Shown one piece after another: positions 7,201-59,410 of a stretch of 64,000 nucleotides of DNA. Positions within the stretch are counted from its first letter, which is position 1, and the number at the start of each line of letters is the position of its first letter. Under the pieces are notes generated by a model, which made no database searches, was not told the DNA's origin, and saw nothing but the letters and a program-made list of their open reading frames with translations. Source of the stretch: an uncultured Candidatus Berkelbacteria bacterium (lineage in GTDB: Bacteria; Patescibacteriota; UBA1384; UBA12157; JAENIV01); assembly GCA_963698075.1 (NCBI GenBank), contig OY969116.1, positions 542,131 through 606,130 on the forward strand, in the 5' to 3' direction. A program made the translations under genes and the position numbers.

Positions 7201-7228
7201 AATTTTATTCCTAATTTACGAATTCATG

Positions 7229-7382: not shown

Positions 7383-7388
7383 AGTATT

Positions 7389-9037: not shown

Positions 9038-9048
9038 CCTTATTTCCC

Positions 9049-11387: not shown

Positions 11388-11391
11388 CTCT

Positions 11392-11470
11392 GCCCCTCCG
11401 CTCCTGAGTCCCGCCTCCGGCGGGAGCTCAGGAAGCCCCGCTAATGACGCTCCTGTGTGATTGAATGTAA
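11392..11470. repeat. Hairpin-containing repeat, copy 1 (between pilA stop and pilD start)
   Basis: gctcctgagtcccgcctccggcgggagctcaggaagccccgc is homologous to 12058-12110 and also includes a ccccgc...gcgggg long-range stem. Confidence 0.6.
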
Positions 11471-11523
11471 TTCAATAAACAGGAAGGAATTTTGCGGGGC
11501 ACGTGAATCTCAACTTATTTTAT

Positions 11524-12051: not shown

Positions 12052-12130
12052 CTCCTTCGCTCCTGAATTTCGCTTCTGCGATAGCAGAAAGAAAGTTCAG
12101 GAAGCCCCGCACCTGGCGCTTCTGCAATAA
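12052..12130. repeat. Hairpin-containing repeat, copy 2 (5' leader of pilA)
   Basis: gctcctgaatttcgcttctgcgatagcagaaagaaagttcaggaagccccgc has the same ctga-hairpin-tcaggaagccccgc architecture as 11392-11470. Confidence 0.6.
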
Positions 12131-12195
12131 CAGGACGTAGTCCGTTTTGCAGAAAGGAATGGTGCTGGGGTAATTATTTTTACTTGTAAATTTTA

Positions 12196-12591
12196 CTACT
12201 TTTTCTGTTCCGCTAAAAATGTCTCGACTTTTTTCACCACTTGTTGTGGGGTAACGTCGGTTTTAACCAGATAATCAACCGCGCCAAGTTTGAAACACTC
12301 AAAGACCGCGTCTTCTTGACCAAAATTGGTCAATAAGATCACCGGCGTGGTAAAAGTCGCTGGTTGGCTGCGAAGTTTCTTAAATAAAGCCAGGCCATCG
12401 AGTTTGGGCAGCATAATGTCAAGCAAAATCAAGTCAGCTTTTTCTTTGGTCGCCTTTTCCATGCCTTCGAGACCATCGTAGGCAACTATCACATCATAAC
12501 CATCAGAGACGAATTTACGCTCATACATTTTTACCAGCGTGACATCATCTTCAATGAAAAGAATCTTGGCTTTAGCCATTTTGTTCCTCAA
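12196..12591 (-). CDS. Stand-alone response-regulator receiver domain (CheY-like)
   Basis: ILFIEDD...LILLDIMLPKLDG...K. The Asp pocket and phospho-acceptor Asp are conserved, and there is no output domain. Confidence 0.8.
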   Translation of the reverse strand: MRNKMAKAKILFIEDDVTLVKMYERKFVSDGYDVIVAYDGLEGMEKATKEKADLILLDIMLPKLDGLALFKKLRSQPATFTTPVILLTNFGQEDAVFECFKLGAVDYLVKTDVTPQQVVKKVETFLAEQKK

Positions 12592-12710
12592 ACTAATTGT
12601 ACGATAAATAATCCAAAATGCAAAGTTGATTAGCGCTTTTACGGCACTGTAATACTCACCTGGCTGGCGTTCGAATAATCACCCGCGCGATATTTTATGA
12701 TGCTTCAACT

Positions 12711-14471: not shown

Positions 14472-14645
14472 TTTAATTTTAAAAAGATTAAGATTTTAAT
14501 TTTTAAGATATTCAATGCCAAGGAGTAGCTACTTCGCCCCCTTCAAGTTGGATAGCATCCCAATAAACGGTGTCAGTTGGAATCGCCCCATTACTTAAAA
14601 GATGAATTCTGGCTTTACTGGTGGCAGTGGCGGTAAAAGTGACGC

Positions 14646-24131: not shown

Positions 24132-24932
24132 CTAAAGTGGGGCGATGACCATCTGGGTATAGCTGGCCTTCAAGGGAGGAAGTCGGATATCGCCGTACTC
24201 ATCCTCGTGGGTGACCTTGGCGCGGTGGTAGCGTCCGCCGACAAGATAGCCGCGGATCCCGGGAGAGATCTCGATGCCTGCAAGGCGCTTGACAACCTCC
24301 GGGAAATGGGCGCCTTTGAGCAGGAGGTCAACCACTGCCATCCTGATCCGACTTTCGGTCACCGCGCAAAGAAAGCCAAACTGCCAGAGGGGAAGACCCG
24401 GACAAGCCTCAAACTCAATCACCAAGGCAACACGAGTGTTATGCTCGACCTCATCGATTGCCAGTCTCTCCTTACCCAGGACAAACCATTCGTATCCGCA
24501 GGTTTGCCACTGCACCCCTTTGTTAATCCATTGGATTGTTGGTCTGCCTGTCCACCGATGGGTATAGACGGCCCAACCAGGTCCAGCATGATCGGCCGGG
24601 CCAATCTCATTGCTGGCGAAGGAAAGGAAGATGAGAATGGGAGAAAGACAACCGACAATCACTGCTCGAGCTAAGTCATCAAGATCACCTGAGCTGGCGG
24701 CCACAAGGAAACAGACTGTCGTACCGACCACTAGACCGGCGCAGATGAGGTCGACCAGCAAGCTCATTCGAAACCGAGTGAGCAGCAGTTTCTCATATCC
24801 GGGCAGATTGCTCTTGGTAACCATGTAGAAGAGTCGATTGAGATAGATGTACCATGTTGCCACCACAGCGACGAGCGCAACTAGCATGATTACGGTGGAC
24901 ATTGTTTCCCTCCCTGGGTAGGTTCCTGGCAA
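24132..24932 (-). CDS. Hypothetical polytopic membrane protein (GC-rich island)
   Basis: A 266-aa ORF with about four TM helices in the N-terminal half. GC is about 55%, against a backbone of about 40%. Confidence 0.45.
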   Translation of the reverse strand: MPGTYPGRETMSTVIMLVALVAVVATWYIYLNRLFYMVTKSNLPGYEKLLLTRFRMSLLVDLICAGLVVGTTVCFLVAASSGDLDDLARAVIVGCLSPILIFLSFASNEIGPADHAGPGWAVYTHRWTGRPTIQWINKGVQWQTCGYEWFVLGKERLAIDEVEHNTRVALVIEFEACPGLPLWQFGFLCAVTESRIRMAVVDLLLKGAHFPEVVKRLAGIEISPGIRGYLVGGRYHRAKVTHEDEYGDIRLPPLKASYTQMVIAPL

Positions 24933-28756: not shown

Positions 28757-30364
28757 TCAGGCCTGGACCAGCCTCGCGAGCCCTGTGCCGCGACGGCGCT
28801 TGGCGATCTCGTCCGCCCCTGGCAGGAAGATATCGGCCTCGCCGAGCCCCAGGAAACGAGAGACCGTGTCCACCAGGTGGGCCTTCTCGCCCGCGGCAAC
28901 AGCGAAGTGATGGACAGTGGTCTTCCACTTCCCGTCGACGCCCAGGACGAGTGCCTCTTCGAGCTCATCGAAGGTGGCATCGTCCACGCCCACGTAGAAG
29001 TGGGTGCCCAGTGTCATGGGGCCGTTGACTACTAGCGCCTCAAAGGCAGCGAGCGAGAAGCTGACGCCGGCCGCGCTGTTCCGGTTGCAGAGCCGGGCCA
29101 GCGTCATTGGCGTCCCCTTCTCGAAGTTCCCTACACCATCGAGGAAGGCGTAGGCCGGCCGCGAGGTCGGGATGATCCAGCCCTGCCTGGCGACGCAGCG
29201 GGTGCAGTTGACCGAGGGGAACGGCCCGCAGTGCCAGACCAAGATCCCGATGATCTTTCCGTCATCGAGGATCACCGTGATGGTGATGTCCGCGAACATC
29301 GGCGGTTTGCCACAAGGGTCGAGGGCCTGAAGCATCATCATCGAGAGCAGGCCACCCCTGTCGGTCTCGCAAGCGACCGGCACGCCGTGGCGGAGCAGCT
29401 CACCGCCAACCATGCAGAGCATGAGCTGGTAGTTCTCCATGCACGCCGGCCAGCAGTTGTGGGTCAGCCCGTCGAGGTCGTACCTCAGGCAGAGTTCGAG
29501 CTCCGCGATGATCGCCGCGGCGATCCGTCTGGCCGCCTCAGGCGGGATCTGGCTGAGATCGATGCCGCGCACCTGCATCGCCTGACACTCTGCCTCGAGC
29601 ATCGGCTGGTCGGGGTCCTGAAGCAGGCTGACCACGCGTCCGAACAGCTCGACCTGATCGATGGGGACCACCTCGACACCGAACCGCGTCCCCAGGACCG
29701 CCGGGCTGCATTCGATCGCTTCGAAGGTGGGCTGGTCGCCGCCGATCTGGCCGATGCGCACGCCCCGCGACATGTTCCGTACTGCCCTAGCTGCGGCGAC
29801 GAAGTCGCGGAACTTGGCAATCTCCTTCTGGCTGCCGGGCTGGCTCTGGCCAACGTAGTCATAGTGGTAGACCCCGTAGTCGGCCACGAGCTTCGAGGCG
29901 GGCTGGAATCCACACCAGGCATCGGTCTCGCGCGTGCCGTCGGTGTTCGGGTAGCCATCGTAGGGCGCGAAGAGCAACACCGGTAGGCCGAGCTCCTGGG
30001 CGAGCACGGCGATTTCGTGCTCGCAGCCGTAGTTGCCGAAGCCCACCTCGAGCGCATCGGCACCCTTGAGCTTGAGGTCCGCCGCCAGGCGCAGCACATC
30101 TGTTCCCGGAGAGATCACACCGCCATCGATGACAGTGATGTCCTGGCGGCAACCAAGCTCTGCGAGCCTGGCTGCGTGTCGCTGGCCCGGTGCCTTCTGG
30201 CTGAAGACCTGCCGCGAAGCGGTCACCCGCACCAACCCGAGAGGCCACTGGGTACGCCGACATTCCTTCCACTGTCTTACCAGTTCTTCTGAACGGGTTT
30301 GCGTCGCCACGACTTTCACCTCCTCGGTTACCTCCAGGCTCACGCCTGTGAGGGGGACTGCCAA
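28757..30364 (-). CDS. L-fucose/L-arabinose isomerase family protein (COG2407-like)
   Basis: A 535-aa protein of about 62% GC with many spurious overlapping ORFs. The assignment rests on overall resemblance to FucI/AraA-like sugar isomerases and is uncertain. Confidence 0.4.
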   Translation of the reverse strand: MAVPLTGVSLEVTEEVKVVATQTRSEELVRQWKECRRTQWPLGLVRVTASRQVFSQKAPGQRHAARLAELGCRQDITVIDGGVISPGTDVLRLAADLKLKGADALEVGFGNYGCEHEIAVLAQELGLPVLLFAPYDGYPNTDGTRETDAWCGFQPASKLVADYGVYHYDYVGQSQPGSQKEIAKFRDFVAAARAVRNMSRGVRIGQIGGDQPTFEAIECSPAVLGTRFGVEVVPIDQVELFGRVVSLLQDPDQPMLEAECQAMQVRGIDLSQIPPEAARRIAAAIIAELELCLRYDLDGLTHNCWPACMENYQLMLCMVGGELLRHGVPVACETDRGGLLSMMMLQALDPCGKPPMFADITITVILDDGKIIGILVWHCGPFPSVNCTRCVARQGWIIPTSRPAYAFLDGVGNFEKGTPMTLARLCNRNSAAGVSFSLAAFEALVVNGPMTLGTHFYVGVDDATFDELEEALVLGVDGKWKTTVHHFAVAAGEKAHLVDTVSRFLGLGEADIFLPGADEIAKRRRGTGLARLVQA

Positions 30365-33892: not shown

Positions 33893-35344
33893 TTAGTTCG
33901 TTGGTTCCTCTTCGGAATCGTTGTCCTCGAAAACTCTCTCGAGGAGCTCAGTAGTCGGGTTGGCGATCTGTTTGACCGCCTCTTCCAGGTCGAGTTGGAT
34001 CCGGGCTTTGATGTACTTAGGCAACCGGTTCCACTCTTCCGCGGAGATTGTCGGCGAGATGTACGGGCGGACAACGGTGTAGCCCTCGGGGATGAAGCGT
34101 AAGACCTGGATACCGTACTGGGCTTCAAACTCCTGGACCGCTTGCCGCTGTTCGTCGCTCATGTTAGCGCGCCGCCGATGCATTCGTACATACCGGGGCG
34201 TGTAGGGTTCGCGGGACTCGAGAACCTTGCTCCGAACCGGCAGCTCGCGGTTGTAAACTACCCGTGGGATGTACGTCCAGCCAGTACAGATCTGTGGCTT
34301 CTCAGGCTTGGGCTTCTTCTTACCCTTCCCGCCTTCCTTCTGCGGCCGGCGGACGGTGATCTGCTTGGCGGTGACCAGATCGTGGTAGACCTGAACACAC
34401 AACCAGAGCAGATAGGTGTTGAACTTCTCTGGAACCGCATCTGGGGGAAGATACTCGGGTCTGTCGCGCAGTATGAACACAACATCGTTGATACTGAAGA
34501 ACGAAGACCCGTGTTCATGCTCCAGCTTGGCCATCAATCCCAAGGATGTTTCGTCGCGGGGAGACTGGTACACCTTGAGAATCATGGACCTGACCGGAGA
34601 CCTGGGATCATGGAAAACCACGATTGACCCTTCTGGGTTGGGTACGTAGCGGAAATTCGCCCAGGCATCCTCGAGAAGAGTCAAGATTGGACGCATGCTG
34701 GGAAACTGAGGCAGCCTATCCGCGAGGTCTCCAGAGCCCCTCAGCGTGTCTTCTGGATCGGGGATAAAGGCAGCATCATCAGGGCCGATGTCATTCATCT
34801 GAGCCGCCACGGGGAAGTGGAACCTCACAAAGTCGGTCTCGATTTGGAGCGGTTTCCTTAGTTGCCGCCAGATTGGCTCCCCCTTGGTCCCTATTAGCAC
34901 CGTGTCTTCGGAACCGGCCGCAAAATGCAGGAACCGCACTGAATAGTAGAGGAACACGTGAAGTGCTCCGTAGGGATTATCCTTGTCTAGCATCCTGTTC
35001 AGATCGGGCAGAAGTCCCAGAGCGGTCATCTCCTCCAGAATCCCGTATTGGAACGGGATGATCCGGTACTGGCCGCTGTTGACGATCCTGTCCAACATGT
35101 TCAGCAAGTATCTGACATAGTACTGGTTCATCTTATCCCTGGCATCGGCTAGTTTGAGCCCCGAAGTGCGCTCGAACTCAGCTTTACAGTGACGGAATAG
35201 TCCTACCAGCAGCCTGTTCGCTGAGCTATGCTCTGGTGGTAGTGCGAAAGGGAAGCCCTCGAACTCTAGTCCAGCCATCCCTTTCGAAAACAGAGTGTAG
35301 ACATCGGGCAAAGTACTTATGAGTAGGTCGATGTCTTGCCACAT
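33893..35344 (-). CDS. Orphan 483-aa protein with no recognisable domain (GC-rich island)
   Basis: A long intact ORF of about 56% GC with a basic patch RRPQKEGGKGKKKPKPEKP. The antisense ORFs are much shorter. Confidence 0.5.
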   Translation of the reverse strand: MWQDIDLLISTLPDVYTLFSKGMAGLEFEGFPFALPPEHSSANRLLVGLFRHCKAEFERTSGLKLADARDKMNQYYVRYLLNMLDRIVNSGQYRIIPFQYGILEEMTALGLLPDLNRMLDKDNPYGALHVFLYYSVRFLHFAAGSEDTVLIGTKGEPIWRQLRKPLQIETDFVRFHFPVAAQMNDIGPDDAAFIPDPEDTLRGSGDLADRLPQFPSMRPILTLLEDAWANFRYVPNPEGSIVVFHDPRSPVRSMILKVYQSPRDETSLGLMAKLEHEHGSSFFSINDVVFILRDRPEYLPPDAVPEKFNTYLLWLCVQVYHDLVTAKQITVRRPQKEGGKGKKKPKPEKPQICTGWTYIPRVVYNRELPVRSKVLESREPYTPRYVRMHRRRANMSDEQRQAVQEFEAQYGIQVLRFIPEGYTVVRPYISPTISAEEWNRLPKYIKARIQLDLEEAVKQIANPTTELLERVFEDNDSEEEPTN

Positions 35345-37855: not shown

Positions 37856-38392
37856 ATGCGGAACCTAATGTTCGCCGCTACCCTGGTATGCCTGGCGGTT
37901 TCGCCCTGTCTGGCCAGCGAGAACCTGGACCTGTATGAAGGAGGAACGGTTGTCGCCACGCTCTGCGGCTTCGAGGATCTCGGTAACGGGTTCTCAACCA
38001 ACGGGTTTGTCGACATCAAGAAAGACGGCTGGTTCTCCAAGGTTCGCGTAGCGAAGATGGAGAATCAGGCCGGAGTGGCCGTCGAGCTCCGAAGCGCTTC
38101 TGGCGGCTACCGCGAGGTAGTCGGCGGACCGCAGCTCGAGCTCAAGGACAGTGCCGGCTTCGTCCGGACTAACTGCTGGAGCGATGGGACCCTCTCAATC
38201 TGGCAGCAACACACCCTCTCCCAGGACTTCTGGACCAATGGCTGGCTCGATGTCAAAAGAGGCCAGACTATGGCCGAGCTCCAAGTCGGCCACAAAGTCG
38301 CGCCAAGGGCGGACCTGATCGCCGAGTACCGGTTCGGCTCCAAGAGGGCCGAAACCGAGCTGGCAGTCGGAGTCCAATTCGGACTTCGGTAG
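37856..38392 (+). CDS. Secreted protein with signal peptide (GC-rich)
   Basis: MRNLMFAATLVCLAVSPCLASE is a signal peptide. The gene is about 58% GC. Confidence 0.5.
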   Translation: MRNLMFAATLVCLAVSPCLASENLDLYEGGTVVATLCGFEDLGNGFSTNGFVDIKKDGWFSKVRVAKMENQAGVAVELRSASGGYREVVGGPQLELKDSAGFVRTNCWSDGTLSIWQQHTLSQDFWTNGWLDVKRGQTMAELQVGHKVAPRADLIAEYRFGSKRAETELAVGVQFGLR

Positions 38393-38398
38393 TATCCA

Positions 38399-38426
38399 CC
38401 CCCGCCTTCCCAACGGAAGGCGGGGG
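38399..38426 (+). terminator. Strong GC stem-loop (possible terminator)
   Basis: cccccgccttcc-caac-ggaaggcggggg. Confidence 0.45.
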
Positions 38427-38504
38427 CAACTCCGAACTCTCAAGTTCCTTGAGGGCTGGGAAGTTGAAAATACACCGCCAGGATATCTGGCATAAGGAGA
38501 AAGA

Positions 38505-38928
38505 GATGATAAAGGCCATCAAAACCTGGATGGAACGATTGTTGTTCGTCTGTGGCCTTAGGACAAAGCCAGCCCGCTGCAACAAGTGCAGCAAGGTCTA
38601 TGAGACCTTCCCATGCCCAGAATGCGGCGTTGACCTGGTGAAGAAAGGCACCTTCAGTATCATCTGGCGACCAACGGATTGTGGCTATGTCTGGCAGTTA
38701 TTGGACCAGCAACGCCGATCGGTTTGTAGAAGATGTAAGCACCAGTTGGTCGAGGAATGCATCTGTTCGTGCCGGGAAGGAAGGATTGAGTTTCCCAGGG
38801 AAATCCCTCGGCAAAACAGAATCTTCATGGATGGGTTCTCAAAGATCTGCAGAGAATGCGGCTATGTGATCGGCAAAGGAGAGAAATGCCGTAACTGCGG
38901 GGCTTGGTCCGAAGAAGAAACCGACTGA
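38505..38928 (+). CDS. Cys-rich zinc-ribbon protein (six CxxC pairs). Start taken at MIKAIK; the ORF-track start at 38449 is an upstream extension.
   Basis: CNKC, CPEC, CRRC, CICSC, CREC and CRNC motifs. An RBS aaggagaaagag precedes the ATG at 38505. Confidence 0.5.
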
Positions 38929-43139: not shown

Positions 43140-44117
43140 GTGACAAAGGTGTCACAGATAAACCCGATAGACGCGGGAATGGCGTTCATGCTGTCCCAAA
43201 AAGATGAAGATGGCTTTTGGCGTGAATTCGGCCAGCTTCGCCACGGGCCGTCTACTGCCTGGGCCAGCGCCTATATTGGCCGGTTGCTCCTACCTATCCT
43301 CAAGGCCAGAGGGCAGGCTCAAGTTCTGGACTCCACGCTTGGGGCGATTATCTCCAGTCAGAATCAGGACGGCGGTTTTTCCTACAATGAGTATGTCCCT
43401 TCTGACGCCGATTCTACCGCCAATGTCCTTCTTCTGGCTCAAGCGCTCGGAATTACGATCGAGGGCGCCGAACGAGCACTGTTGGGTCATCAACAGCCAG
43501 ACAATGGATTTTCGACTTACACGCCCGGGCACTTCGCGAGCATCCATCCGGACATGATCGCTGTTCTGCAATGCGAAGAGTGTCTGACGGACTACTGTTC
43601 GGGGAATTCCTGCCCCCTCTTCCCTGGAAGAGGCTGGTGTAGCTCCCATGTCTGCGTGACTGCTGTTGCTGCACAGGCATTAACTGACCGCCAGGCGAAA
43701 GCGGGTGTCTTGAAGTTCCTAACCGCCAAACAGCTCAGCTCGGGTCTCTGGCCGGCTTACTGGTGGATAGGACAAAACTACAGCACCCTCCAAGCGATCA
43801 AGGCGCTGGGTAAAGACAGGATGCCAAATCTGGAAACGCTGGTCGCCGGTCTAAAGAGGTCGGGTGTCCAGAACATTTTTTCGGTGGCTCTGGCAATCGA
43901 GGGGTTACTTCTGCTTGGTACCAGGCCTCCTGATCAGTTCGGCGACTGGTTGATAAGGAACCAATGCCCAGACGGCGGTTGGCCTTCTTCGCCGGTACTC
44001 CGCATTCCCAGACCGGATATGGAAAATCCGGAGGAAGCCAACGAGGTTCTGTTCGATCAGCACCGTCTTTTCTCAACAGTTCAGGCTGTCCATTCACTCT
44101 ATCTCTCAGGGAGGTGA
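43140..44117 (+). CDS. Prenyltransferase/squalene-cyclase-type alpha/alpha-toroid repeat protein (GC-rich)
   Basis: It has QxxDGGF/W repeats: QNQDGGFSY, QQPDNGFSTY and QCPDGGWPSS. The start codon is GTG. Confidence 0.5.
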   Translation: MTKVSQINPIDAGMAFMLSQKDEDGFWREFGQLRHGPSTAWASAYIGRLLLPILKARGQAQVLDSTLGAIISSQNQDGGFSYNEYVPSDADSTANVLLLAQALGITIEGAERALLGHQQPDNGFSTYTPGHFASIHPDMIAVLQCEECLTDYCSGNSCPLFPGRGWCSSHVCVTAVAAQALTDRQAKAGVLKFLTAKQLSSGLWPAYWWIGQNYSTLQAIKALGKDRMPNLETLVAGLKRSGVQNIFSVALAIEGLLLLGTRPPDQFGDWLIRNQCPDGGWPSSPVLRIPRPDMENPEEANEVLFDQHRLFSTVQAVHSLYLSGR

Positions 44118-51298: not shown

Positions 51299-52351
51299 TT
51301 GATGATCAAGCTCCAACCGGTAACGATCATTGGCTTGGGTTCATATGTTCCCAGCACCGTTCTCACTAATGATGATATCCGTGACCGGCGTCCCTCGGAC
51401 ATTCCAGAAACTGAATGGACCGGCGATGCCTGGATCTTCCCGCGCACCGGCATCAGAGAACGAAGGATTGCCCCCAAAGATTGGGGTTCATCTGATTTGA
51501 TGGTGCCGGCGGCTAACCGGGCACTCGCTGATGGAAATCTAGCTATCGGCGATATTGATCTGATTATCACTTCAACTTCTTTCCCCGACAAGGGTTCCGA
51601 CTGCCCCCGGACTTCCGAGATCTTCAAACATCTCATCGGCGCCCATCAAACCCCACTTTCGGTGACGGAAAACGCCGAATGCGCCGGGTTTGAGTGGGCC
51701 TCGATCCGCGCTCAAGAGATGATGACTCTCTACGGCTACGAGCGCGTGATGGTCGTCTCCGGCGACAAGACTAGTTCAGCCGCCAACCCCCGTGACCGCA
51801 AAACCTACCCTTTGTTCGGCGACGCCGGCGGCTGCGTCATTCTGGCCCCTTGCGATGAGGGTGACGGCTTCTTGGCCTCGGCTCGCGGCACCGATACCAC
51901 CTATATCGACGCCATTGAGATTCCCGCTGGCGGGTCGAAAATGCCAGCCACCCTGGAAACCGTCCAGCAAGGTCTTCATTATATGACAATGCCTGGCGGT
52001 AGCGATATGCTCAAGATCATTGGTGGTAAAGTCTTCCCCGACATTTGCCGCGAGCTTGTCGCTAAGGCCGGGATCTCCTTAGAGCAAGTCCGCCACATCA
52101 TTGCCCATCAAGCCAATATTCGCATCACCATTGCTGCTGAGAGGCGTCTTGGCACGCACCTCTTCAAGGAAACCCAGCTTTGGTTCGGCAATACCTCGGG
52201 CTCAAGCGTGCCTCTGGCTCTCGACACCCTCTATCTTCACGGCGATCTTGAGCCAGGTGATTACATCATCATCGTCGGTTTCGGCGCTGGCTTTATCTGG
52301 GGCGGCCTCTTGATGCGCTGGACCAAACCGCGGTTCCGATTCCAGGGGTGA
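51299..52351 (+). CDS. FabH-like 3-oxoacyl-ACP synthase III / type III KS (GC-rich)
   Basis: It has an active-site Cys in ENAECAGF and a His/Asn C-terminal half (HQANIRI, GNTSGSS). It is about 58% GC. Confidence 0.7.
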   Translation: MMIKLQPVTIIGLGSYVPSTVLTNDDIRDRRPSDIPETEWTGDAWIFPRTGIRERRIAPKDWGSSDLMVPAANRALADGNLAIGDIDLIITSTSFPDKGSDCPRTSEIFKHLIGAHQTPLSVTENAECAGFEWASIRAQEMMTLYGYERVMVVSGDKTSSAANPRDRKTYPLFGDAGGCVILAPCDEGDGFLASARGTDTTYIDAIEIPAGGSKMPATLETVQQGLHYMTMPGGSDMLKIIGGKVFPDICRELVAKAGISLEQVRHIIAHQANIRITIAAERRLGTHLFKETQLWFGNTSGSSVPLALDTLYLHGDLEPGDYIIIVGFGAGFIWGGLLMRWTKPRFRFQG

Positions 52352-52363
52352 AAGGAGGAGACG

Positions 52364-52690
52364 ATGAGAAGAGAAGTCTTCCTAGTTATCCGTCAGAATC
52401 CGGAGGCATTTTCGCTCACTCGTTTGGATGGTAATGTCACCACTATTCCCAATCTATGCCAACCACCCAAGGTATTCTTAGGCATTTCCGTCAATCGGGA
52501 TGAGCTGGGCGAAAATCCACCACTCCCCATCTTGCGCCGAGATCTTATAGGCGCATTGGCGCATCCAGTTTCTCCGCCCTTCGGTCAAGAAGACCAGCTC
52601 ATCGCCATCATGGTAGCTTCCGCGAAGGCTGATTGCAGCAGCCTTCGCGATTGCACCCTGGAAGAGGCCCTCACCCTCTGCGAACTATAA
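52364..52690 (+). CDS. Hypothetical small protein inside the biosynthetic island
   Basis: A 108-aa ORF with an RBS aaggaggagacg, starting 10 nt after the FabH-like stop. Confidence 0.4.
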   Translation: MRREVFLVIRQNPEAFSLTRLDGNVTTIPNLCQPPKVFLGISVNRDELGENPPLPILRRDLIGALAHPVSPPFGQEDQLIAIMVASAKADCSSLRDCTLEEALTLCEL

Positions 52691-52787
52691 TCCCGCCTGT
52701 TTACCAATCGATCTTTTCCCCGCCGCCCTTGAAAAGGGCGGCTTTCTGTATTAAAATATCTATATCCGCTAGGCTAGGAGGTTTGCC

Positions 52788-53291
52788 ATGGCCGGTATTC
52801 TCGATCTTTGCCCAGAGCCATTCCGCTTGCCCCAACCGCTCGCGCCGCGACTTTCCCATGGCGAAACTTGGATCCAGGTCGGAGCAGTTGTCGGCTACGA
52901 TCCGGAAACCAAGACCATCTACGCCACGCGCACTTTCACCGGCGAGGAAGAAATCAAGAATCCCGATCACTTCCCTGGATGGGTGATCATGGCTGGCGTC
53001 CTCCAGCAAGAGTTTGTCGCTCAGGCCGCTATCCAGTATGCCCTGTTCGACGCCCAATACGACGACTGTCTCTTCACCATCGTCCGAGTGGAGGCGGAGT
53101 TTCGCCAGCAGGTACCTGCTGGCACCGAACTCATGGCAATCTGCCGGCTCCTGACCTTGCCGAAGCCGGGCACCATCAAACTCGGCGATGCCGAATGCCA
53201 GCTATTAACAGCTGACTGTAAGCTGGTCATGTCGGCCAAAATCCGCTTCAAAGTCGTCACCAAAAGCAAGACGCCACTGGCCCAACTCTAA
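52788..53291 (+). CDS. FabZ/FabA-like hot-dog dehydratase
   Basis: HFPGWVIMAGVLQQEFVAQAA matches the FabZ catalytic His motif HFPGxPxMPGVL. Confidence 0.55.
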   Translation: MAGILDLCPEPFRLPQPLAPRLSHGETWIQVGAVVGYDPETKTIYATRTFTGEEEIKNPDHFPGWVIMAGVLQQEFVAQAAIQYALFDAQYDDCLFTIVRVEAEFRQQVPAGTELMAICRLLTLPKPGTIKLGDAECQLLTADCKLVMSAKIRFKVVTKSKTPLAQL

Positions 53292-53361
53292 CTGGGCCTC
53301 TTCCAGCGATCACCACCCCGCCTCCTCGGCGGGGTTCTCATATCTAGAGCTATTCTGATTA

Positions 53362-53958
53362 TTATTTAAGCGCTATTGCCTTTTCCCATTCCTTCTCCAG
53401 CCCCAATTTCTTAACCCACGAGAGCAAATATTTTCGATTGATATTACTGGCTTCTAAAACCGCTCTCACATCCTCCAGTTGTCTATCCGATCTGCTTTCA
53501 TGATACCATCGCAGTTTGGCGATAATGAGATCTTCTGGCGAAATAAATCTGATAAGTTTTCCGCCAATTTTTTTCTTTTTAGCGCGCTTTATTTCTAATT
53601 TTTGATGCTCATCTTGGCCTATCACAAAAAAATCGGCTTTGAGACCATATTCCGGCTCAATCAAATTAAACTCGCCCTTGTTTTTATAAGCAGCCAGCGC
53701 AGTATCTTTATTCAAATATCCAACTTTAAACTTCTTTAATAATCCTTCTGTTAGCTCTTCGATTTTCTCTCGAGAGCTAATTTCGATCACAATATCTAAA
53801 TCGGCCGTATAGCGAGGCCTGCCCCAGACTGACACGGCGACACCGCCCGAAACGGCATATTCGATTTTAAGCTCGTCTAAGGTTTGGCTTATTCCGACGA
53901 GAAACTGTTTGATGGTCATGTTTGAGTTCTTTGGCAAACTTGAAAAAATCATCCACAA
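53362..53958 (-). CDS. Nucleotidyltransferase-fold protein (AbiEii/MNT-like); likely start MTIKQ at 53919
   Basis: AVSGGVAVSVWGRPRYTADLDIVIE is the GS...DxD nucleotidyltransferase signature. Confidence 0.5.
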   Translation of the reverse strand: MWMIFSSLPKNSNMTIKQFLVGISQTLDELKIEYAVSGGVAVSVWGRPRYTADLDIVIEISSREKIEELTEGLLKKFKVGYLNKDTALAAYKNKGEFNLIEPEYGLKADFFVIGQDEHQKLEIKRAKKKKIGGKLIRFISPEDLIIAKLRWYHESRSDRQLEDVRAVLEASNINRKYLLSWVKKLGLEKEWEKAIALK

Positions 53959-54137
53959 TGGTTATCTTTTTATCCGCGGACATTTTTTTATAGATTTTGA
54001 TCTGCTTTTCTTCGGCTTTGTTCATCGCGATTTCATCATACAGCATGCCGCCTAATTTACAAATTCACCCTCACACCAAATATTTTGGTTGAGGGTCTAA
54101 CCTGTTTGACCCCACCTACGAAGTGGGGTTAGAATGG

Positions 54138-55124
54138 TCAGAGCAATTTTTGCTGGTTGTTAGCGCGTCGGGATTCCGGTAATCGCGAGATCAAGGATTT
54201 AAAACCGAGTTTATTTAGTAATTTGATAACGTTATTTTGATCGTAGTCGTGGATGCGTGAATCAGCTAAATTAAATTCGAGCGGGACATCATCAATAATT
54301 TTTGATAATTTTTGTGACAAAAATGCTTGCTCTTTGTTCTCTTTTAATAAGATTTGAACTTTTCCGCTAATTTTTGCAATATTTTTATAAATTTTTTCTA
54401 AATTTCCAAATTCGGAAATCAATTTCGCTGCGCCTTTTTCGCCAATCCCTGGCACCCCGGGAATGTTATCGCTCGGATCTCCTTTGAGCGCCTTAAAATC
54501 GACGAATTGTTTGGGCTCGAGTCCGTAGCGTTCGCGGACTTTCTCAACATCATACATCATCGCAGAATTTACGCCTCGCGCCATTGAATAAACCTTAGTT
54601 TGCTCATCCACCAGTTGTAGGCAGTCTAAGTCTCCGGTGACAATAATAAATTCAAGAGTAGGATTTAGGGTGTAGCGTTTAGCGTTTAGTGATTTGGAAT
54701 TTTGAATTTGGGATTTGTTTAGGATTTCGGATTTAGGATTTCGGATTTTCGCGATAATACTCGCGATCACATCCTCGCCTTCGTACCCTTCCACCGCAAA
54801 AACCGGAATATTCATCGCTTTCAAAATTTCTTTTGTATATGGCACTTGAGCCATTAAATCTTCAGGCATCGGCGCACGATGAGCCTTGTATTCAACATAT
54901 TCGATATGCCGTTTGGTCGGCTTGGGTAAATCAAAACCGCAGGCCAAATATTCCGGCTCTAAGGCTTTAATCGCCGCCAATAAGGCGCTCGTAAATCCAT
55001 AAGCGGCATTAAGCTGCACGCCTTTTTTGTTCGTCAAAGGCGGCAAGGCATAATAAGCCCTAAAAATCAAGGCAAAGGCATCAATTAGGACAAATCTATT
55101 CTTGATCATCTTTGCCAAAATCAT
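54138..55124 (-). CDS. 5'-3' exonuclease (Pol I N-terminal / FEN-like) carrying an in-frame repeat insertion. Start taken at MILAKMIK; the ORF-track start at 55268 is an upstream extension.
   Basis: FVLIDAFALIFRAYYALPPL...GDPSDNIPGVPGIGEKGAAKLI (H3TH). The stretch RNPKSEILNKSQIQNSKSLNAKRY is encoded by repeat 54658-54749. Confidence 0.75.
   Translation of the reverse strand: MILAKMIKNRFVLIDAFALIFRAYYALPPLTNKKGVQLNAAYGFTSALLAAIKALEPEYLACGFDLPKPTKRHIEYVEYKAHRAPMPEDLMAQVPYTKEILKAMNIPVFAVEGYEGEDVIASIIAKIRNPKSEILNKSQIQNSKSLNAKRYTLNPTLEFIIVTGDLDCLQLVDEQTKVYSMARGVNSAMMYDVEKVRERYGLEPKQFVDFKALKGDPSDNIPGVPGIGEKGAAKLISEFGNLEKIYKNIAKISGKVQILLKENKEQAFLSQKLSKIIDDVPLEFNLADSRIHDYDQNNVIKLLNKLGFKSLISRLPESRRANNQQKLL
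54658..54749. repeat. AT-rich MITE-like element (ggatttcggattt family), partial copy inserted in frame in the exonuclease gene
   Basis: gatttggaattttgaatttgggatttgtttaggatttcggatttaggatttcggatttt. Confidence 0.65.
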
Positions 55125-55162
55125 ACCATATTTTTCGAACAAAAGAAAGCCCTGAAGTAACC

Positions 55163-56512
55163 TCAGAGCTTTCGGAGTCGTTTTACCCAGCCCCAAATGC
55201 GGGGCACAAAATGGCCAAAAAGCAGTCGGAAGAAATTGAGCCGGCGAAGCGGATGGCGCCAAAACCAAGGATCAGTGATCAGCCGCCAAATCATATTTAG
55301 AATCCAGTAATAGCGATGATAGAGATTGCGCACTCCTTCCTCAAGCTCTTCCGGAGTCATTTGCGCTGGCTCAAAAACCGCATGGGTCCCGTCATACAAG
55401 CTAGGATCTAGCTTCCGAATCCTCCCCTCCCTTTGCCAGCGCCGATAAAGCTTGGTTCCTGGCAAAGGCGTCAGCACGGTGAATTGAGGCGCATCAGCCT
55501 TCAGTCGATTGAGCTCTCGGAAGGCCCGCCTAAACTCCGCGGGGGTATCACTGTCAAAACCGAAAATCATGGCTGGGATAATGGCGATTCCTGAACGATG
55601 GAGCAACCTTACCATCTCACGATATTGCTCAACTTTGTTAATGGCTTTGCCGGCCAACTCAATTGAGGCCGGGTTGAATGATTCGAAGCCAACGAAGAGG
55701 ACGGCACAGCCGCTTTTGGCTGCCAAGCGAGCCAGATCCGGCCTCTTAAGGAGAGTCATATCTGCCTGGGCAAACCAAGGGCGTCTGACCGGAATGAGCG
55801 CCCGAAAGAGCTCTTCGGCATAGTCGAAGTCAGCCACAATATTATCATTAGCAAAGACTAGCGGGCCTGGCGGCAAGCCGCGGATCTCATCGAGAGTGGG
55901 GCCAATCGGCCGAAAACGGACTTGCTGACCGGAGAACATCCAAACCGAGCAGAAATCGCAAGAGTTGGGACAGCCGCGGGCAGTCTGGAGGATGTTGAAA
56001 TAAGCATAGTCTCTGGGGTTCAGACCCTCTCTTTTGGGACTCGGGATATTCGCCAAACTGGGGGAATGCTCGGCCGTAAAGATGGCCGGCGCCACCCCAT
56101 CCTCGAGGGATGTCAAAAACCGCGACCAGCCACCTTCGGCCTCTCCTCGAAAAACATAGTTAGCTTGCTTGAGGCATTCTTGCGGACAAAACGTGGGATC
56201 AACACCGCCGTAGACAATAGGTATGCCTCGCTCTTGAAATCGAGCGGCGATGGCGTTGGCTCGAGGTCTGACAGCGCTCATCGTCACGGTAATTCCCACC
56301 AGATCCACGGGTAGATCGAAATTGATGGGACTGACAGATTCATCAACAATCGTTACTTGATAGCGAGGAGGTGTCAAGGCAGCGATCTGCATCAAAGCCA
56401 GTGGTGGAAAAAATGGTTTATATTGATGGGGTCCTGGACCGCCTGGATCGGCGGTAACCAGCAGTATCCGCTCAAGCCGCTTATTTTTCAAGGTTCTCAC
56501 CCCTTTCGTCAT
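55163..56512 (-). CDS. B12-binding (class B) radical SAM enzyme
   Basis: It has an N-terminal cobalamin-binding-type domain and the rSAM triad CPNSCDFC. It is about 56% GC. Confidence 0.75.
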   Translation of the reverse strand: MTKGVRTLKNKRLERILLVTADPGGPGPHQYKPFFPPLALMQIAALTPPRYQVTIVDESVSPINFDLPVDLVGITVTMSAVRPRANAIAARFQERGIPIVYGGVDPTFCPQECLKQANYVFRGEAEGGWSRFLTSLEDGVAPAIFTAEHSPSLANIPSPKREGLNPRDYAYFNILQTARGCPNSCDFCSVWMFSGQQVRFRPIGPTLDEIRGLPPGPLVFANDNIVADFDYAEELFRALIPVRRPWFAQADMTLLKRPDLARLAAKSGCAVLFVGFESFNPASIELAGKAINKVEQYREMVRLLHRSGIAIIPAMIFGFDSDTPAEFRRAFRELNRLKADAPQFTVLTPLPGTKLYRRWQREGRIRKLDPSLYDGTHAVFEPAQMTPEELEEGVRNLYHRYYWILNMIWRLITDPWFWRHPLRRLNFFRLLFGHFVPRIWGWVKRLRKL

Positions 56513-56549
56513 CAGGTGCCATTATACCACGACGGAATTTTATCACATA

Positions 56550-56580
56550 CGAAAAGCCCCCCGCCGCAGGCGGGGAGCCA
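56550..56580 (-). terminator. Rho-independent terminator for the 56593-58020 gene
   Basis: ggctccccgcctgcggcgggggctttt on the minus strand. Confidence 0.55.
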
Positions 56581-56592
56581 TGAGTCATGGAT

Positions 56593-58020
56593 TTATCTGA
56601 TAGAACCGGAAACCGGTGAGTCATCGCCTTCAAAATTCCGATAATAATCCCGATTGGTGACGAGGGCTTGGTCAGCCAAAGGGGCATAAACACCCGCCAA
56701 TTGCCGAATCTGATGGCAGAGCGGTTCCTCAATGACCGCTTCAGCCCCTTCGTGGGTCGGGTGAGCGCCACAGGTCCTCACGCAATGTTCAAGCCACTCA
56801 TTGTGGTCAATGATTATACAAGGCCTTAGCAGGTTGGGGTCGCGGCGGTTGTGGGCCCTGATCTCACGAAAGAAAGGGGAACTCAAAACATCCCAGAGAT
56901 GGCCGCCATTGGCCCAGATGTCTTTGATATTGTCCTTGGCAAAATGGATAAACACACATGGTTCCAAGTCGCCTCGGAAGTTGACGTGCAAATAGAGCTC
57001 GCCGCCGGCCATGCAGCCGCGAGTTAGGTGGCCGTCGTTCCAGAAGTCGGCGACAAAGATGGGCTTGGTACGCCTTAGATAGATAGTGTTGAAATGCCGG
57101 AGCCGATCGCGCTGTTCGGGCGTGATCATTAACTCCACGGTATTATCTTTGCCGACGGGCACAAAGATGAAGAACCAGCCGTAAAGGCAGCCGCGCTGGA
57201 TCATCTCGTCCACAAAGTCATCATGGAGAAAGTATTCCGCATTCGTGCGCATGGCGGTGGCGGAAAAACCGAAGAGCAGGCCGGCTTCATTCAATCGGGC
57301 CATGGTCTCTTTGGTTTTTCGATAAACCCCAGGGCCCCGCCGCCAATCAGTCATTGCCTCATCGCCCTCGATACTAATCGCTGGAGTGAAATTGCCCAGT
57401 GTTTGCATTGCTTCGATTTCGCGCTCGCCAATGGTGGTGCCATTGGTGTAAATGAGGAAAAAAGCATCTCTGTGCTTAGCATAAAGATCCAAAAGATCCG
57501 ACCGGACGAATGGTTCGCCGCCCGAGATGGTGTACATGAAGACGCCCATCTCCTTGCCTTCAGAAACGAGTCGATCCAGATCGTCGAAGGAAAGTGGATC
57601 GGGCCCCTTGGGATATTCGGCGGCATAACAACCACGGCAATGCAGATTACAGCGCATTGTCGGCGAAATCACCATGAGATAGGGCGGCACAACGCCATGA
57701 CGTCTGGCGAATTCCTGTCTGTTTTCACGTCCCCGCCAAGTGGCGTTGATGACCAGATTATCAATAATCGCCCGCCTGACGTTGGGATGTCGCCGCATTA
57801 GGTGCAGCGTCAGATCGGTTGCAGGATGACTGGCCTCATAAAGGCCTTTCAATTGGCGAAGCTGGGTTTGGAAATGCGCTCCTAGCCGGCGCCATTTTGA
57901 GGCAATGTTGGTCGCAGCAATCAGCGTCCTTCGGCTTCGACCAATGACAGCCGGATTCAGAGTCTTCTTGGCCACTTGTGACCAAAAGATCTGCTTGAAA
58001 AATCGTACCAGGAATCGCAC
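56593..58020 (-). CDS. Radical SAM enzyme with a Cys-rich C-terminal (SPASM/twitch-like) auxiliary-cluster domain
   Basis: It has CNLHCRGC and ISGGEPF motifs, and C-terminal Cys clusters GCMAG...C...CxxxC. Confidence 0.7.
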   Translation of the reverse strand: MRFLVRFFKQIFWSQVAKKTLNPAVIGRSRRTLIAATNIASKWRRLGAHFQTQLRQLKGLYEASHPATDLTLHLMRRHPNVRRAIIDNLVINATWRGRENRQEFARRHGVVPPYLMVISPTMRCNLHCRGCYAAEYPKGPDPLSFDDLDRLVSEGKEMGVFMYTISGGEPFVRSDLLDLYAKHRDAFFLIYTNGTTIGEREIEAMQTLGNFTPAISIEGDEAMTDWRRGPGVYRKTKETMARLNEAGLLFGFSATAMRTNAEYFLHDDFVDEMIQRGCLYGWFFIFVPVGKDNTVELMITPEQRDRLRHFNTIYLRRTKPIFVADFWNDGHLTRGCMAGGELYLHVNFRGDLEPCVFIHFAKDNIKDIWANGGHLWDVLSSPFFREIRAHNRRDPNLLRPCIIIDHNEWLEHCVRTCGAHPTHEGAEAVIEEPLCHQIRQLAGVYAPLADQALVTNRDYYRNFEGDDSPVSGSIR

Positions 58021-58102
58021 TTATCCTCACCTCCCTGTTTTCAGGTTCTCCCCCATTTCCAATAAAGTATATGCCAAAGGCACTTCTTTTTCAAGAGAAA
58101 GT

Positions 58103-59410
58103 TCATTGATTAAGTCTTTTGAGCAATAATTCTTTGGCCACTTTTTTATCTGACCAAGGAATTTTTTCATGCCCGACCACCATCCAATCTTCCGCCCCCT
58201 TGCCAGTGATGATAACAATGTCGCCCTTTTGAGCTAAAGTTAAAGCTTTTTCAATCGCCGCCCGCCGATCAAGAATTTTAAAAAAATTTTTGCCTTCAAT
58301 TTTCGGATTGGTTTTTGAGGCTCCCCGCGGTACACCATCAGCCACTTCTTCGATAATTCTTATCGGGTCTTCAGTATAGGGATCTTCATTAGTGATAATG
58401 ACCACGTCGGCGAATCTTCCCGCTAAAGCGCCCATAATCGGTCTTTTTGAACGATCGCGATCCCCGCAAGCGCCAAAAACCGCAATCAGCCGACCACGAA
58501 GAGAAGCTTGCAAAGTCGCAAAAATTTTTTCTAACGCGTCCGGGGTGTGAGCATAGTCAATAATGACCACAAACGACTGCCCCATTTCCACTTTTTCCAT
58601 CCGGCCAGGAATATTGTCAATTGATTCCAAAGCCTGCTTGGCCAGCCCCAAATTGATCTTAAGATCAATGGCAACGCACAGAGCCGCCAACGTATTATAA
58701 ATATTGAATTTGCCCGGCAATTTCAAATCAATCGCCACTTGCGTTTGGGGCGTCACCACCGTAAATAAACTACCGGTTGATTCCAAGATAATTTTTTTGG
58801 CTAAAATCTCCGGTTTTCTTGGACGTTCATTTTCTGGGCTTTCCGTTCCGTAAGTAATAATTTTCGGACCATCCATCTTCAAGAAAAAACTGGCTGATTT
58901 ATCATCCATATTGATAATTGCTGTCTCGGATTCTTGAAAAATTTTTGCCTTGGTGTCGCGGTATTCTTCGTAGGTTTTGTGATAGTCAAGATGATCATGA
59001 GTAATATTGGTCAAAACCGCAATTTTTGGCTCAATTGACCAAATGCGGTTTTGAGCGATTGAATGCGAGGTCGTTTCTAAAACCAACCAATGGCAGCCAA
59101 CCTTAACCGCCTCGCGCAGAAATTTCTGCAAAGCAAAAGGCGAAACCACCGTCATTTTGGTCCTGTTTTTCCATTCCCGGGCGCCAATTTTAAAATTAAT
59201 TGTCGTTGCCATCGCCACTTTGTAATTGGCCGCTTCCAAAATCCGAGCAATCATGTTGCAGGTGGTGGTTTTACCGTTGGTGCCGGTGACCATAATCACC
59301 CGAATATTTTTGGCCGGAAAGCGATAAATTGCCGCCGCCAATATTCCCCGAACTTTGTGGCTCCAAAGGATAAAAGATTGGGGTAAAGTTTTGCGTAAAA
59401 AATCCCTCAT
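58103..59410 (-). CDS. Mur ligase family protein (MurE/MurT-like)
   Basis: It has the P-loop MVTGTNGKTTT and Mur ligase middle and C-terminal domains. Confidence 0.7.
   Translation of the reverse strand: MRDFLRKTLPQSFILWSHKVRGILAAAIYRFPAKNIRVIMVTGTNGKTTTCNMIARILEAANYKVAMATTINFKIGAREWKNRTKMTVVSPFALQKFLREAVKVGCHWLVLETTSHSIAQNRIWSIEPKIAVLTNITHDHLDYHKTYEEYRDTKAKIFQESETAIINMDDKSASFFLKMDGPKIITYGTESPENERPRKPEILAKKIILESTGSLFTVVTPQTQVAIDLKLPGKFNIYNTLAALCVAIDLKINLGLAKQALESIDNIPGRMEKVEMGQSFVVIIDYAHTPDALEKIFATLQASLRGRLIAVFGACGDRDRSKRPIMGALAGRFADVVIITNEDPYTEDPIRIIEEVADGVPRGASKTNPKIEGKNFFKILDRRAAIEKALTLAQKGDIVIITGKGAEDWMVVGHEKIPWSDKKVAKELLLKRLNQ

Follow-up and report, generated by a model that had tools for sequence, protein, structure and literature searches.

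A GC-rich region in a Candidatus Berkelbacteria genome appears to hold two independent units, one of them a candidate lipid-tail-remodelling pair of radical SAM enzymes

The radical S-adenosylmethionine (SAM) enzymes described in the literature as joining lipid tails by carbon–carbon coupling are Tes, Mss and Gms/Hbs. Mss is the only confirmed bacterial enzyme that makes membrane-spanning lipids. Expressed alone, it sufficed for the production of coupled diacids from the fatty acids of Escherichia coli itself (PMC13159169). Surveys have placed its homologues in Firmicutes, Armatimonadetes, gamma-Proteobacteria and candidate phyla, with 3 of 428 Patescibacteria and 7 of 13 Armatimonadota metagenome-assembled genomes (MAGs) listed as carriers (bioRxiv 10.1101/2022.04.21.487849). 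Gms, the glycerol monoalkyl glycerol tetraether (GMGT) synthase, also joins lipid tails by a C–C bond, and Gmm is a B12-radical SAM methylase of the same tails (Garcia, Chadwick and Welander; PMC11214058). Gms is close in sequence to AhbD (36% identity, E=7e-79) and has seven to eight conserved SPASM cysteines (PMC11214058; bioRxiv 10.1101/2023.10.20.563219). Here we describe a GC-rich region in the genome of an uncultured Candidatus Berkelbacteria bacterium that encodes a radical SAM enzyme resembling Mss beside a B12-binding radical SAM enzyme. The region spans positions 51299–58020 of a 64,000-nucleotide stretch of the 929-kb contig OY969116.1 (positions 542,131–606,130), which we call the window, and comprises five open reading frames (ORFs) in two blocks (51299–53291 and 55163–58020).

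On balance we favour an account in which these blocks are two independent units. Unit 1 is a cassette of a FabH-like 3-ketoacyl-acyl carrier protein synthase III (KAS III), a 108-residue protein and a hot-dog protein; unit 2 is a horizontally acquired cassette of two radical SAM enzymes that would remodel lipid tails. The five ORFs and their motifs lie where a first-pass annotation of the window had placed them, and Pfam and NCBIfam searches agree with its gene identities, namely KAS III, a FabZ-like hot-dog protein, a B12-type radical SAM enzyme and a SPASM/twitch-type radical SAM enzyme. The same annotation depended on the radical SAM proteins falling outside housekeeping families and had offered unusual lipid tailoring as one alternative. 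None of the four proteins reaches any NCBIfam cut-off, housekeeping families included, and for the radical SAM pair lipid tailoring appears to be the right track. Coordinates of all features are collected in Table 1; loci on other contigs carry the prefix L.

The first gene of unit 2 encodes a 475-residue protein with an N-terminal helical extension of about 110 residues. An AlphaFold2 (AF2) model (predicted local distance difference test score (pLDDT) 86) places five helices in this extension; next come the radical SAM barrel and, at the C-terminus, a twitch/SPASM-like region. Its nearest folds in the PDB by Foldseek are generic (SuiB, SkfB, anSME and PqqE). The best NCBIfam score is that of NirJ2, at 87 bits against a cut-off of 500, and the Pfam SPASM model does not match the protein. 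In an alignment of 20 family members only four cysteines are conserved downstream of the core motif (Cys278, 336, 355 and 401), as would be expected of a twitch-like domain or an incomplete SPASM domain and not of a full seven-cysteine SPASM array. The C-terminal auxiliary-cluster cysteine array of the first-pass annotation is to that extent corrected.

The same 20 sequences share a series of invariant residues along the chain. The core motif C124-N-x-x-C128-x-G130-C131 (C124-N-L-H-C128-R-G130-C131 in the window) is followed by G167-G-E-P-F; G209-N..S216..R227-R-G; S253..N260..W282..P288..Q303-R304; and finally D325-F-W..Y343-x-H345-x-N347..E353-P-C-V-F and P400-C401. Mss itself is characterized by six blocks, given in words in the supplement to bioRxiv 10.1101/2022.04.21.487849. 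These are CNxxCxGC (block I); GGEP with L/F/N (II); an N/S/Gly-rich stretch with Arg (III); G, S, N, E and W, then P, Q and R (IV); Asp-Phe, Y/H/N among glycines, VEPC and P-C-F (V); and prolines with Cys, Val and Ala (VI). Block I is present in the 475-residue enzyme, and for blocks II–VI matching invariant residues occur in the right order when set against this verbal description, the window protein having LEPC where VEPC is described. By that published description, the enzyme is likely to belong to the Mss family.

The family around the 475-residue enzyme is large, with more than 5,000 homologues in a first search, and 561 of the 600 metagenome pattern matches listed encode a relative. The phyla of the matches fit the published distribution of Mss. 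In the wider family (41–50% identity) the gene is mostly stand-alone. Among 84 loci the recurrent neighbours include family 2 glycosyltransferases (7 loci), a 1,492-residue BcrAD_BadFG+DUF2229 protein of PlsA/Ger type (5) and acyltransferases of the PlsC type (4) and of the lipid A type, LpxL-like (4). One stand-alone copy lies among housekeeping genes of a Clostridiaceae MAG. Two further homologues are carried by IncF plasmids, one of Escherichia albertii (L098, pEA5_1, NZ_CP117576.1, 2254–3633) and one of Klebsiella pneumoniae (L099, pFF1023_1, NZ_CP077819.1, 86720–88021). Both are stand-alone, about 36% identical to the window protein (E about 1e-74 to 1e-78) and near IS66 elements, and they are apparently a mobile lipid-tail enzyme in Enterobacteriaceae.

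The second gene of unit 2 encodes a class B radical SAM enzyme by architecture: an N-terminal B12-binding Rossmann domain precedes a CxxxCxxC radical SAM core. The Pfam B12-binding match (residues 66–127) scores 30.1 bits, just below the 32.1 cut-off, and the Radical_SAM match covers residues 177–333; homologues of the protein carry a precomputed PF02310 match. Its best NCBIfam scores are BchE (81 against 481), HpnJ (68.9 against 577) and HpnR (52.5 against 650), together with a ladderane B12-radical SAM model that is also far below its cut-off. By these cut-offs it lies outside the characterized methylase families HpnR and HpnJ. It belongs to a large, uncharacterized family (1,545 representatives at E≤1e-30; best non-self match 42% identity). 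Its gene lies directly downstream of the gene for the 475-residue enzyme or its homologue in L002, L018, L004–L008, L019, L020 and L027. A 30-nt direct repeat, 77% identical between its copies, occurs upstream of the first gene of the pair (58066–58095) and inside the annotated 5′ end of the second (56463–56492), and both copies coincide with TTGAAA-17-(T/G)ATACT promoter-like sites. Since one copy falls within the annotated B12 ORF, the true start of that gene may lie further downstream.

The best NCBIfam matches of the pair, NirJ2 and AhbD for the 475-residue protein and BchE for its partner, could be taken to mean that the two enzymes modify a tetrapyrrole or another cofactor. The scores are 5–6 times under the respective cut-offs, however, and reflect mainly the shared core; moreover, no locus has tetrapyrrole genes among the neighbours of the pair, and AhbD-like enzymes can be lipid enzymes, as Gms/Hbs illustrate. 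We consider a cofactor-modifying role highly improbable.

A second alternative, named in outline in the first-pass annotation, is that the pair matures a ribosomally synthesized and post-translationally modified peptide (RiPP), the SPASM-type enzyme cross-linking a precursor peptide and the class B enzyme methylating it. The closest solved folds and sequences are indeed maturases of the SuiB, SkfB, PqqE and CteB types, pairs of B12-radical SAM and SPASM-radical SAM enzymes do occur in RiPP clusters, and the region holds a small ORF. That small ORF, of 108 codons, travels with the KAS III gene and not with the radical SAM genes. No precursor-like ORF stands beside the pair in the window, L002 or L018, where the intergenic spaces are 35–82 bp (none considered exceeds 97 bp), and the one overlapping call, of 47 residues, merely reads the conserved 3′ end of the radical SAM gene out of frame. 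Moreover, no peptide, protease or transporter gene recurs among the 84 loci, homologues commonly stand alone among housekeeping genes, only four auxiliary cysteines are conserved and all maturase models score far under their cut-offs. Since no precursor gene was found, the RiPP proposal lacks support, and we judge such a system very unlikely.

The distribution of the pair bears on its history. Among the related loci of the candidate phyla radiation (CPR), it is present besides the window in L002 and L018 alone, always between murE and a 5′-3′ exonuclease gene. In other relatives this slot holds other cargo, either pilin-like and bAvd genes or a Thr/Pro-rich ORF, the latter lying on the other strand in L100, the closest relative of the window. 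From murE through both radical SAM genes to the exonuclease gene, the window and L018/L002 show a continuous nucleotide identity of 77%. The backbone has diverged to 75–77%, and this equality indicates that the pair is old in the lineage and that some branches lost it or never came to fix it. Both radical SAM genes stay at 78–79% identity between the window and L018.

Outside CPR, the nearest homologues of the Mss-like gene (57–64% identity) were found on high-GC contigs only; the closest on the contigs that we read are 57–59% identical and lie in DNA of 65–69% GC. In these loci a homologue of the B12 enzyme (38–42% identity) comes directly after the gene, and a further three genes follow in GC-rich bacteria, encoding a DUF6785/DUF6784 protein with about nine transmembrane-like segments, a second polytopic membrane protein of about 550 residues and an ATP-utilising AIRS/PurM-like protein. 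The CPR lineage has only the first two genes of this conserved five-gene cluster. A literature search on DUF6785 returned nothing. The non-CPR loci examined, many of them short contigs, yielded neither a FabH nor a hot-dog gene. Unit 2 was probably acquired horizontally by an ancestor of the Berkelbacteria-like CPR lineage, with a GC-rich anaerobe as the likely source.

Base composition marks both blocks off from their surroundings. GC content is 53–56% in the blocks against 43% in the backbone, with sharp edges, and the shifts coincide with gene boundaries. Genes of the region have GC contents of 0.52–0.57 and third-position GC contents (GC3) of 0.53–0.69; for flanking genes both values are 0.37–0.45. 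Tetranucleotide correlation to the backbone is 0.23 for the KAS III block and 0.49 for the radical SAM block, compared with 0.91±0.04 (minimum 0.775) for random 2.5-kb backbone chunks and 0.91 for the DNA between the blocks. The atypical, GC-rich character first assigned to the region was borne out, the tetranucleotide profiles of both blocks falling well beyond the range of the backbone.

Such sharp switches, and the further GC-rich ORFs present elsewhere in the window, might arise if GC-rich foreign fragments had been joined to a CPR backbone by mis-binning or chimeric assembly. An independent Logan assembly of run ERR10755944 is 100% identical to the window over 54720–59279, crossing both junctions of the radical SAM block, and two contigs from Joint Genome Institute (JGI) metagenomes have an identical gene order at 77% nucleotide identity. 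Mis-assembly is thus excluded. Indeed, the same gene order recurs in at least four other metagenomes at 72–84% nucleotide identity, with the inserts diverged in step with their flanks, and the probability that we assign to a chimera is minimal.

Unit 1 has a different distribution. Its KAS III has an intact catalytic triad, formed by the Cys of AECAGF, the His of HQAN and the Asn of GNTSGS, and its length is 349 residues in the database gene call and 350 in the TTG-initiated ORF. It scores under the NCBIfam cut-offs for FabH (NF006829, 225 against 249 bits; TIGR00747, 208 against 292), and its best PDB match is a genuine FabH (8vd9, E=3.5e-48). Its homologues form a distinct clade, with 45–86% identity inside the clade and at most 41% to ordinary FabH of Firmicutes and Armatimonadota. 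A literature search on FabH in CPR or Patescibacteria found nothing. Six clade members whose contigs were read (45–80% identity) all lie between holA and the 5′-3′ exonuclease gene. The KAS III gene stands beside holA in L011, L012/13, L014, L015, L016/17, L018 and L100, within a total of eight related CPR loci that have KAS III in this slot, with or without radical SAM genes.

The divergence of KAS III follows that of the backbone: identities of 49–54% for FabH accompany 50–56% for HolA and, in L100, 80% accompanies 86%. L100 is colinear with the window at 83.6% nucleotide identity, in the order DUF2207, holA, KAS III and small ORF. The conserved synteny, the divergence in step with the backbone and the colinearity of L100 show that unit 1 is a lineage-conserved cassette of KAS III, 108-residue protein and hot-dog protein that was inherited with the genome. 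Its GC content is nevertheless above that of the backbone in all relatives, mildly in distant ones (0.44–0.50 against about 0.40) and strongly in close ones. The first-pass annotation had set its reading against one in which FabH and FabZ are conserved in relatives and have backbone-like composition; the conserved KAS III slot is found, the backbone-like composition is not.

Within this conserved frame, single genes of unit 1 appear to have been exchanged in some relatives. In L018 the KAS III gene in the same slot (11667–12716, minus strand) encodes a protein with an intact triad that is only 25% identical to that of the window, against 73–91% for the products of the flanking genes, which indicates replacement in place by a different KAS III paralog. 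The adjacent hot-dog protein also varies. Clade members of KAS III are usually accompanied by a double hot-dog protein of 250–273 residues, which is the form found next to KAS III in five relative loci (L012/L013, L014, L015, L018 and L100), the copy in L002 being truncated. The catalytic His of these proteins lies in the N-terminal half, with none in the C-terminal half. By contrast with the double hot-dogs, the window protein has a single domain, alone among the loci compared; aligned with the C-terminal half of the relatives' proteins, it shows about 30% identity. Colinearity with L100 ends at 52766, about 20 bp upstream of the hot-dog gene, which has its own Shine-Dalgarno sequence and promoter-like site and a hairpin upstream (52722–52742). 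The protein itself is weakly FabZ-like, with a Pfam FabA score of 19.1 bits against a cut-off of 23 and an NCBIfam score of 32.9 against 113; it matches FabZ in the PDB at E=2.5e-4, its His and Glu aligning with those of FabZ.

The 108-residue ORF is apparently a real gene coupled to that of KAS III, given its Shine-Dalgarno sequence and the conserved homologues in the same position in L100 (85% identity), L018 (43%) and L015 (38%). These share invariant QPP..LGIS, LP.LR and C.LE.AL.LCE motifs. A sequence search with the ORF returned one homologue, and it has no match in Pfam, NCBIfam or the PDB. Its LGIS motif might recall an acyl carrier protein (ACP). That reading is unsupported: there is no family match, the AF2 model is unusable (pLDDT 40) and tblastn with E. 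coli ACP matches nothing in the window. We also rejected the possibility that the 108-residue ORF and the hot-dog ORF are the two parts of a frameshifted double hot-dog, since homologues of the former precede intact double hot-dogs in L015, L018 and L100. The first-pass statement that the window has no other fatty-acid synthesis genes is borne out by Pfam scans of its ORFs, which reveal no other gene of type II fatty-acid synthesis (FAS II), such as FabD, FabG or a FabF partner.

The first-pass annotation had treated both blocks as a single acquired module. In such an integrated lipid module, the KAS III set would build or prime an acyl chain that the radical SAM pair couples or methylates. 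All components plausibly act on acyl chains, both blocks are GC-rich, they are much closer to each other in tetranucleotide profile (r=0.80) than to the backbone, and in L018 the exonuclease gene alone separates them. The two blocks, however, have independent distributions, which argue against a module. The KAS III cassette occurs without the radical SAM pair in L100, L012, L016 and the P0131 contig, the counts leaving aside L011, L014 and L015, where the slot beyond the exonuclease gene is uncovered or murE unseen; conversely, the non-CPR pairs and the loci of the wider family are without a detectable FabH or hot-dog gene. Moreover, the blocks lie on opposite strands with native genes between them, and each has its own promoter-like and terminator-like sites. 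Finally, the radical SAM genes of L018 keep 78–79% identity where its KAS III has been swapped. We therefore regard an integrated module as unlikely and prefer to treat the blocks as two units.

For unit 2, we propose the following scheme. Gene content, composition, synteny, the fixed neighbourhood of the pair, its motif agreement with Mss and the lack of a precursor-peptide gene are observations; the reactions, their substrate, what the B12 enzyme does and the scavenging of lipids are what we infer. A two-gene cassette would have been inserted into the variable slot between murE and the 5′-3′ exonuclease gene. Under anoxic conditions, the Mss-like enzyme would cleave SAM reductively, abstract a hydrogen from the omega end of a membrane acyl chain, or close to that end, and couple the activated chain to a second one, giving a membrane-spanning diacid of the diabolic-acid type. 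The class B B12 enzyme would then modify the coupled alkyl chains, C-methylation of an unactivated carbon being the most likely reaction and ring formation the alternative. This role is proposed by analogy with Gmm, the methylase beside Gms, and with GrsA/B, which are B12-type ring synthases. Since Mss alone was sufficient in E. coli, the cassette would suit a lipid-scavenging organism.

Several observations weigh against the preferred account of unit 2. CNxxC, GGEP and xEPC are common among SPASM/twitch enzymes, so agreement with the Mss blocks is only partly specific, and likeness to Mss was judged from the block description, whereas published membership is defined by E≤1e-50 and at least 30% identity to a confirmed Mss. 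Lipid genes neighbour the Mss-like family in a minority of loci. The B12 enzyme has no family assignment, and its best sequence match in the PDB is the dehydratase AprD4 rather than a methylase. In the nearest non-CPR loci there are also genes for DUF6785, the membrane protein of about 550 residues and the AIRS/PurM-like protein, none of which the CPR version has. L100, as the closest relative, is without the pair beside its exonuclease gene, and the cassette is therefore dispensable. A CPR bacterium would, in addition, need external cobalamin and suitable lipids. As to the independence of the units, the similar tetranucleotide signatures of the two blocks may reflect a common source or a functional link.

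The account would have consequences beyond this genome. The methyl branches of branched glycerol dialkyl glycerol tetraether (brGDGT) lipids underpin widely used palaeotemperature proxies. In the literature searched we found no enzyme that adds the further methyl groups or rings of brGDGT-type lipids, and a B12-radical SAM gene beside an Mss-type gene in nine loci, three of CPR and six of GC-rich non-CPR bacteria, offers a concrete two-gene candidate for such modification. It is a tentative and rather doubtful extension of the proposal that the B12 partner is a bacterial enzyme C-methylating or cyclising membrane-spanning chains of brGDGT type, and that a lipid-auxotrophic CPR bacterium modifies scavenged diester lipids of its host in this way. 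As to CPR biology, the cassette suggests that some ultra-small lipid-scavenging bacteria may remodel the tails of acquired lipids instead of using them unchanged. More generally, a compositional island in a genome of this kind can be of long standing, inherited vertically and composed of unrelated parts, which calls for caution in inferring function from it.

The genes between the two blocks, a DUF2204/AbiEii-like nucleotidyltransferase gene with an overlapping upstream ORF of 59 codons and the native 5′-3′ exonuclease gene, have backbone composition and belong to neither unit. The exonuclease gene is syntenic in all relatives. The nucleotidyltransferase and the small ORF look like a two-gene insert of the toxin–antitoxin type, which is present in L015 and L002 and absent from L018 and L100. 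Around either block we found no flanking direct repeats or att-like sites other than short matches at chance level and the promoter-like repeat, and no tRNA or Rfam element was found within the window.

The region is one of several such patches, with at least five other GC-rich atypical ORFs in the window. The tetranucleotide profiles of the five listed in Table 1 are unlike the backbone and they have nearly no family matches. ORF 28757–30364 (GC3 0.83) has a faint likeness to sulfoquinovose/sugar isomerases, and the correlation of its composition with GC-rich bacterial DNA (L004) is 0.86; ORF 43140–44117 has faint prenyltransferase/squalene-cyclase toroid repeats. Foreign-looking genes seem to be scattered through the host genome. 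The remainder of the window encodes type IV pilus components, S-layer homology (SLH) proteins, FtsK, RNase J, PNPase, S15, S20, LepB, HolA, MurE, FemAB and TsaD, and its gene order is shared with a Candidatus Berkelbacteria MAG over more than 20 kb. At 2541–16691 a type IV pilus cluster (PilM/N, pilins, PilC and PilB) precedes genes for two large proteins with SLH domains and for GAF/PAS histidine kinases, a typical CPR surface and attachment apparatus.

Table 1. Positions of the features discussed, in window coordinates unless a locus is named.
Feature	Position	Strand	Remarks
FabH-like KAS III	51299-52351	+	Pfam ACP_syn_III and ACP_syn_III_C
Conserved 108-residue ORF	52364-52690	+	AGGAGG Shine-Dalgarno sequence 6 nt upstream
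Single-domain FabZ-like hot-dog protein, 167 residues	52788-53291	+	HFPGWVIMAGVL motif (HFPG His) and Glu
DUF2204/AbiEii-like nucleotidyltransferase with overlapping 59-residue ORF (53867-54046)	53362-54046	-	Probable start near 53919
Native 5′-3′ exonuclease	54138-55124	-	Backbone composition; between the two GC-rich blocks
Terminator-like hairpin	55145-55173	-	Overlaps the B12 gene's stop codon; lies upstream of the exonuclease start (about 55124)
B12-binding-domain radical SAM enzyme, 449 residues	55163-56512	-	CPNSCDFC
GC-rich hairpin followed by T-run	56555-56579	-	In the space separating the radical SAM genes; 9 of 11 pairs are G-C
Mss-like radical SAM enzyme, 475 residues	56593-58020	-	CNLHCRGC, GGEP; Pfam Radical_SAM and Fer4_12
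Promoter-like site TTGAAA-17-TATACT	58066-58094	-	Upstream of the Mss-like gene; consensus match only
GC-rich atypical ORF	24132-24932	-	GC 0.51-0.65 across the five ORFs of this kind
GC-rich atypical ORF	28757-30364	-	
GC-rich atypical ORF	33893-35344	-	
GC-rich atypical ORF	37856-38928	+	
GC-rich atypical ORF	43140-44117	+	
Double hot-dog protein of a relative	L100 6756-7577		
Double hot-dog protein of a relative	L015 5300-6112		
Double hot-dog protein of a relative	L018 10387-11208		
Five-gene cluster in GC-rich bacteria	L004 12941-17635		
Five-gene cluster in GC-rich bacteria	L007 13165-17464		
Five-gene cluster in GC-rich bacteria	L019 8414-13211		

How does the region compare with the systems already described? 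For unit 1 the nearest are FabH and FabZ of fatty-acid synthesis, which it resembles in the KAS III triad, in best PDB matches to FabH and in the FabZ His (HFPG) and Glu of its hot-dog protein. Unlike FabH and FabZ, both window proteins remain under the curated cut-offs and no ACP or other FAS II gene accompanies them in the window; unlike FabZ, the relatives' fused double hot-dog is faintly ApeI-like, and a conserved 108-residue protein stands alongside.

Among lipid-coupling enzymes, Tes, the glycerol dialkyl glycerol tetraether–macrocyclic archaeol synthase (GDGT-MAS; PDB 7tol), is likewise a radical SAM enzyme, and it couples sp3 carbons of two lipid tails with the help of auxiliary clusters. 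The match of the 475-residue enzyme to Tes is weak and confined to the core (E=3e-5, residues 116–194), and Tes is outside its top 50 structural matches. The archaeal Gms/Hbs and Gmm/Hgm systems (PMC11214058; bioRxiv 10.1101/2023.10.20.563219) are closer in layout, with a SPASM/twitch radical SAM enzyme that has an N-terminal extension of about 100 residues beside a B12-binding radical SAM enzyme. The extension of Gms (COG4001) is a separate domain, and that of the 475-residue enzyme is predicted to be a bundle of five helices over 110 residues. Unlike Gms, the 475-residue enzyme scores 77.6 bits with the AhbD model TIGR04545 over residues 121–303 only, and its family conserves four cysteines. 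This weak, core-only score and the four cysteines exclude membership of Gms/Hbs, making the enzyme an analogue and not a member. A hopanoid reading, suggested by matches to HpnH, HpnJ and HpnR and by the squalene-cyclase-like ORF 43140–44117, was also rejected, the scores lying 6–12 times below the cut-offs and the ORF being 325 residues long with E about 1e-4.

Closest to unit 2 is Mss (Thermotoga maritima Tmari_0825, WP_004080829.1; Thermoanaerobacter ethanolicus WP_129545148.1; Sahonero-Canavesi et al. 2022, PMC13159169). Like Mss, as far as its published verbal description extends, the 475-residue enzyme is a radical SAM protein with CNxxCxGC and GGEP, and it has residues that agree in order with the other described blocks. 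Like Mss, its family is typically stand-alone, is found in the same phyla, including Armatimonadota, Firmicutes, gamma-Proteobacteria and candidate phyla, and bears signs of horizontal gene transfer; occasionally, again as with Mss, it lies beside ether-lipid genes of PlsA/Ger type. Unlike the Mss systems, the host is a CPR bacterium with a genome of about 0.93 Mb, and no fatty-acid or phospholipid synthesis genes were seen in the window. Moreover, the gene in the window subclade is fixed beside that of a B12-binding radical SAM enzyme, which is no part of the described Mss system. What the region adds to the known systems is a B12-radical SAM gene conserved as the neighbour of the Mss-like gene in one subclade, the old and stable presence of this pair in a Berkelbacteria-like lineage, and a lineage-wide KAS III cassette in which genes appear to have been swapped.

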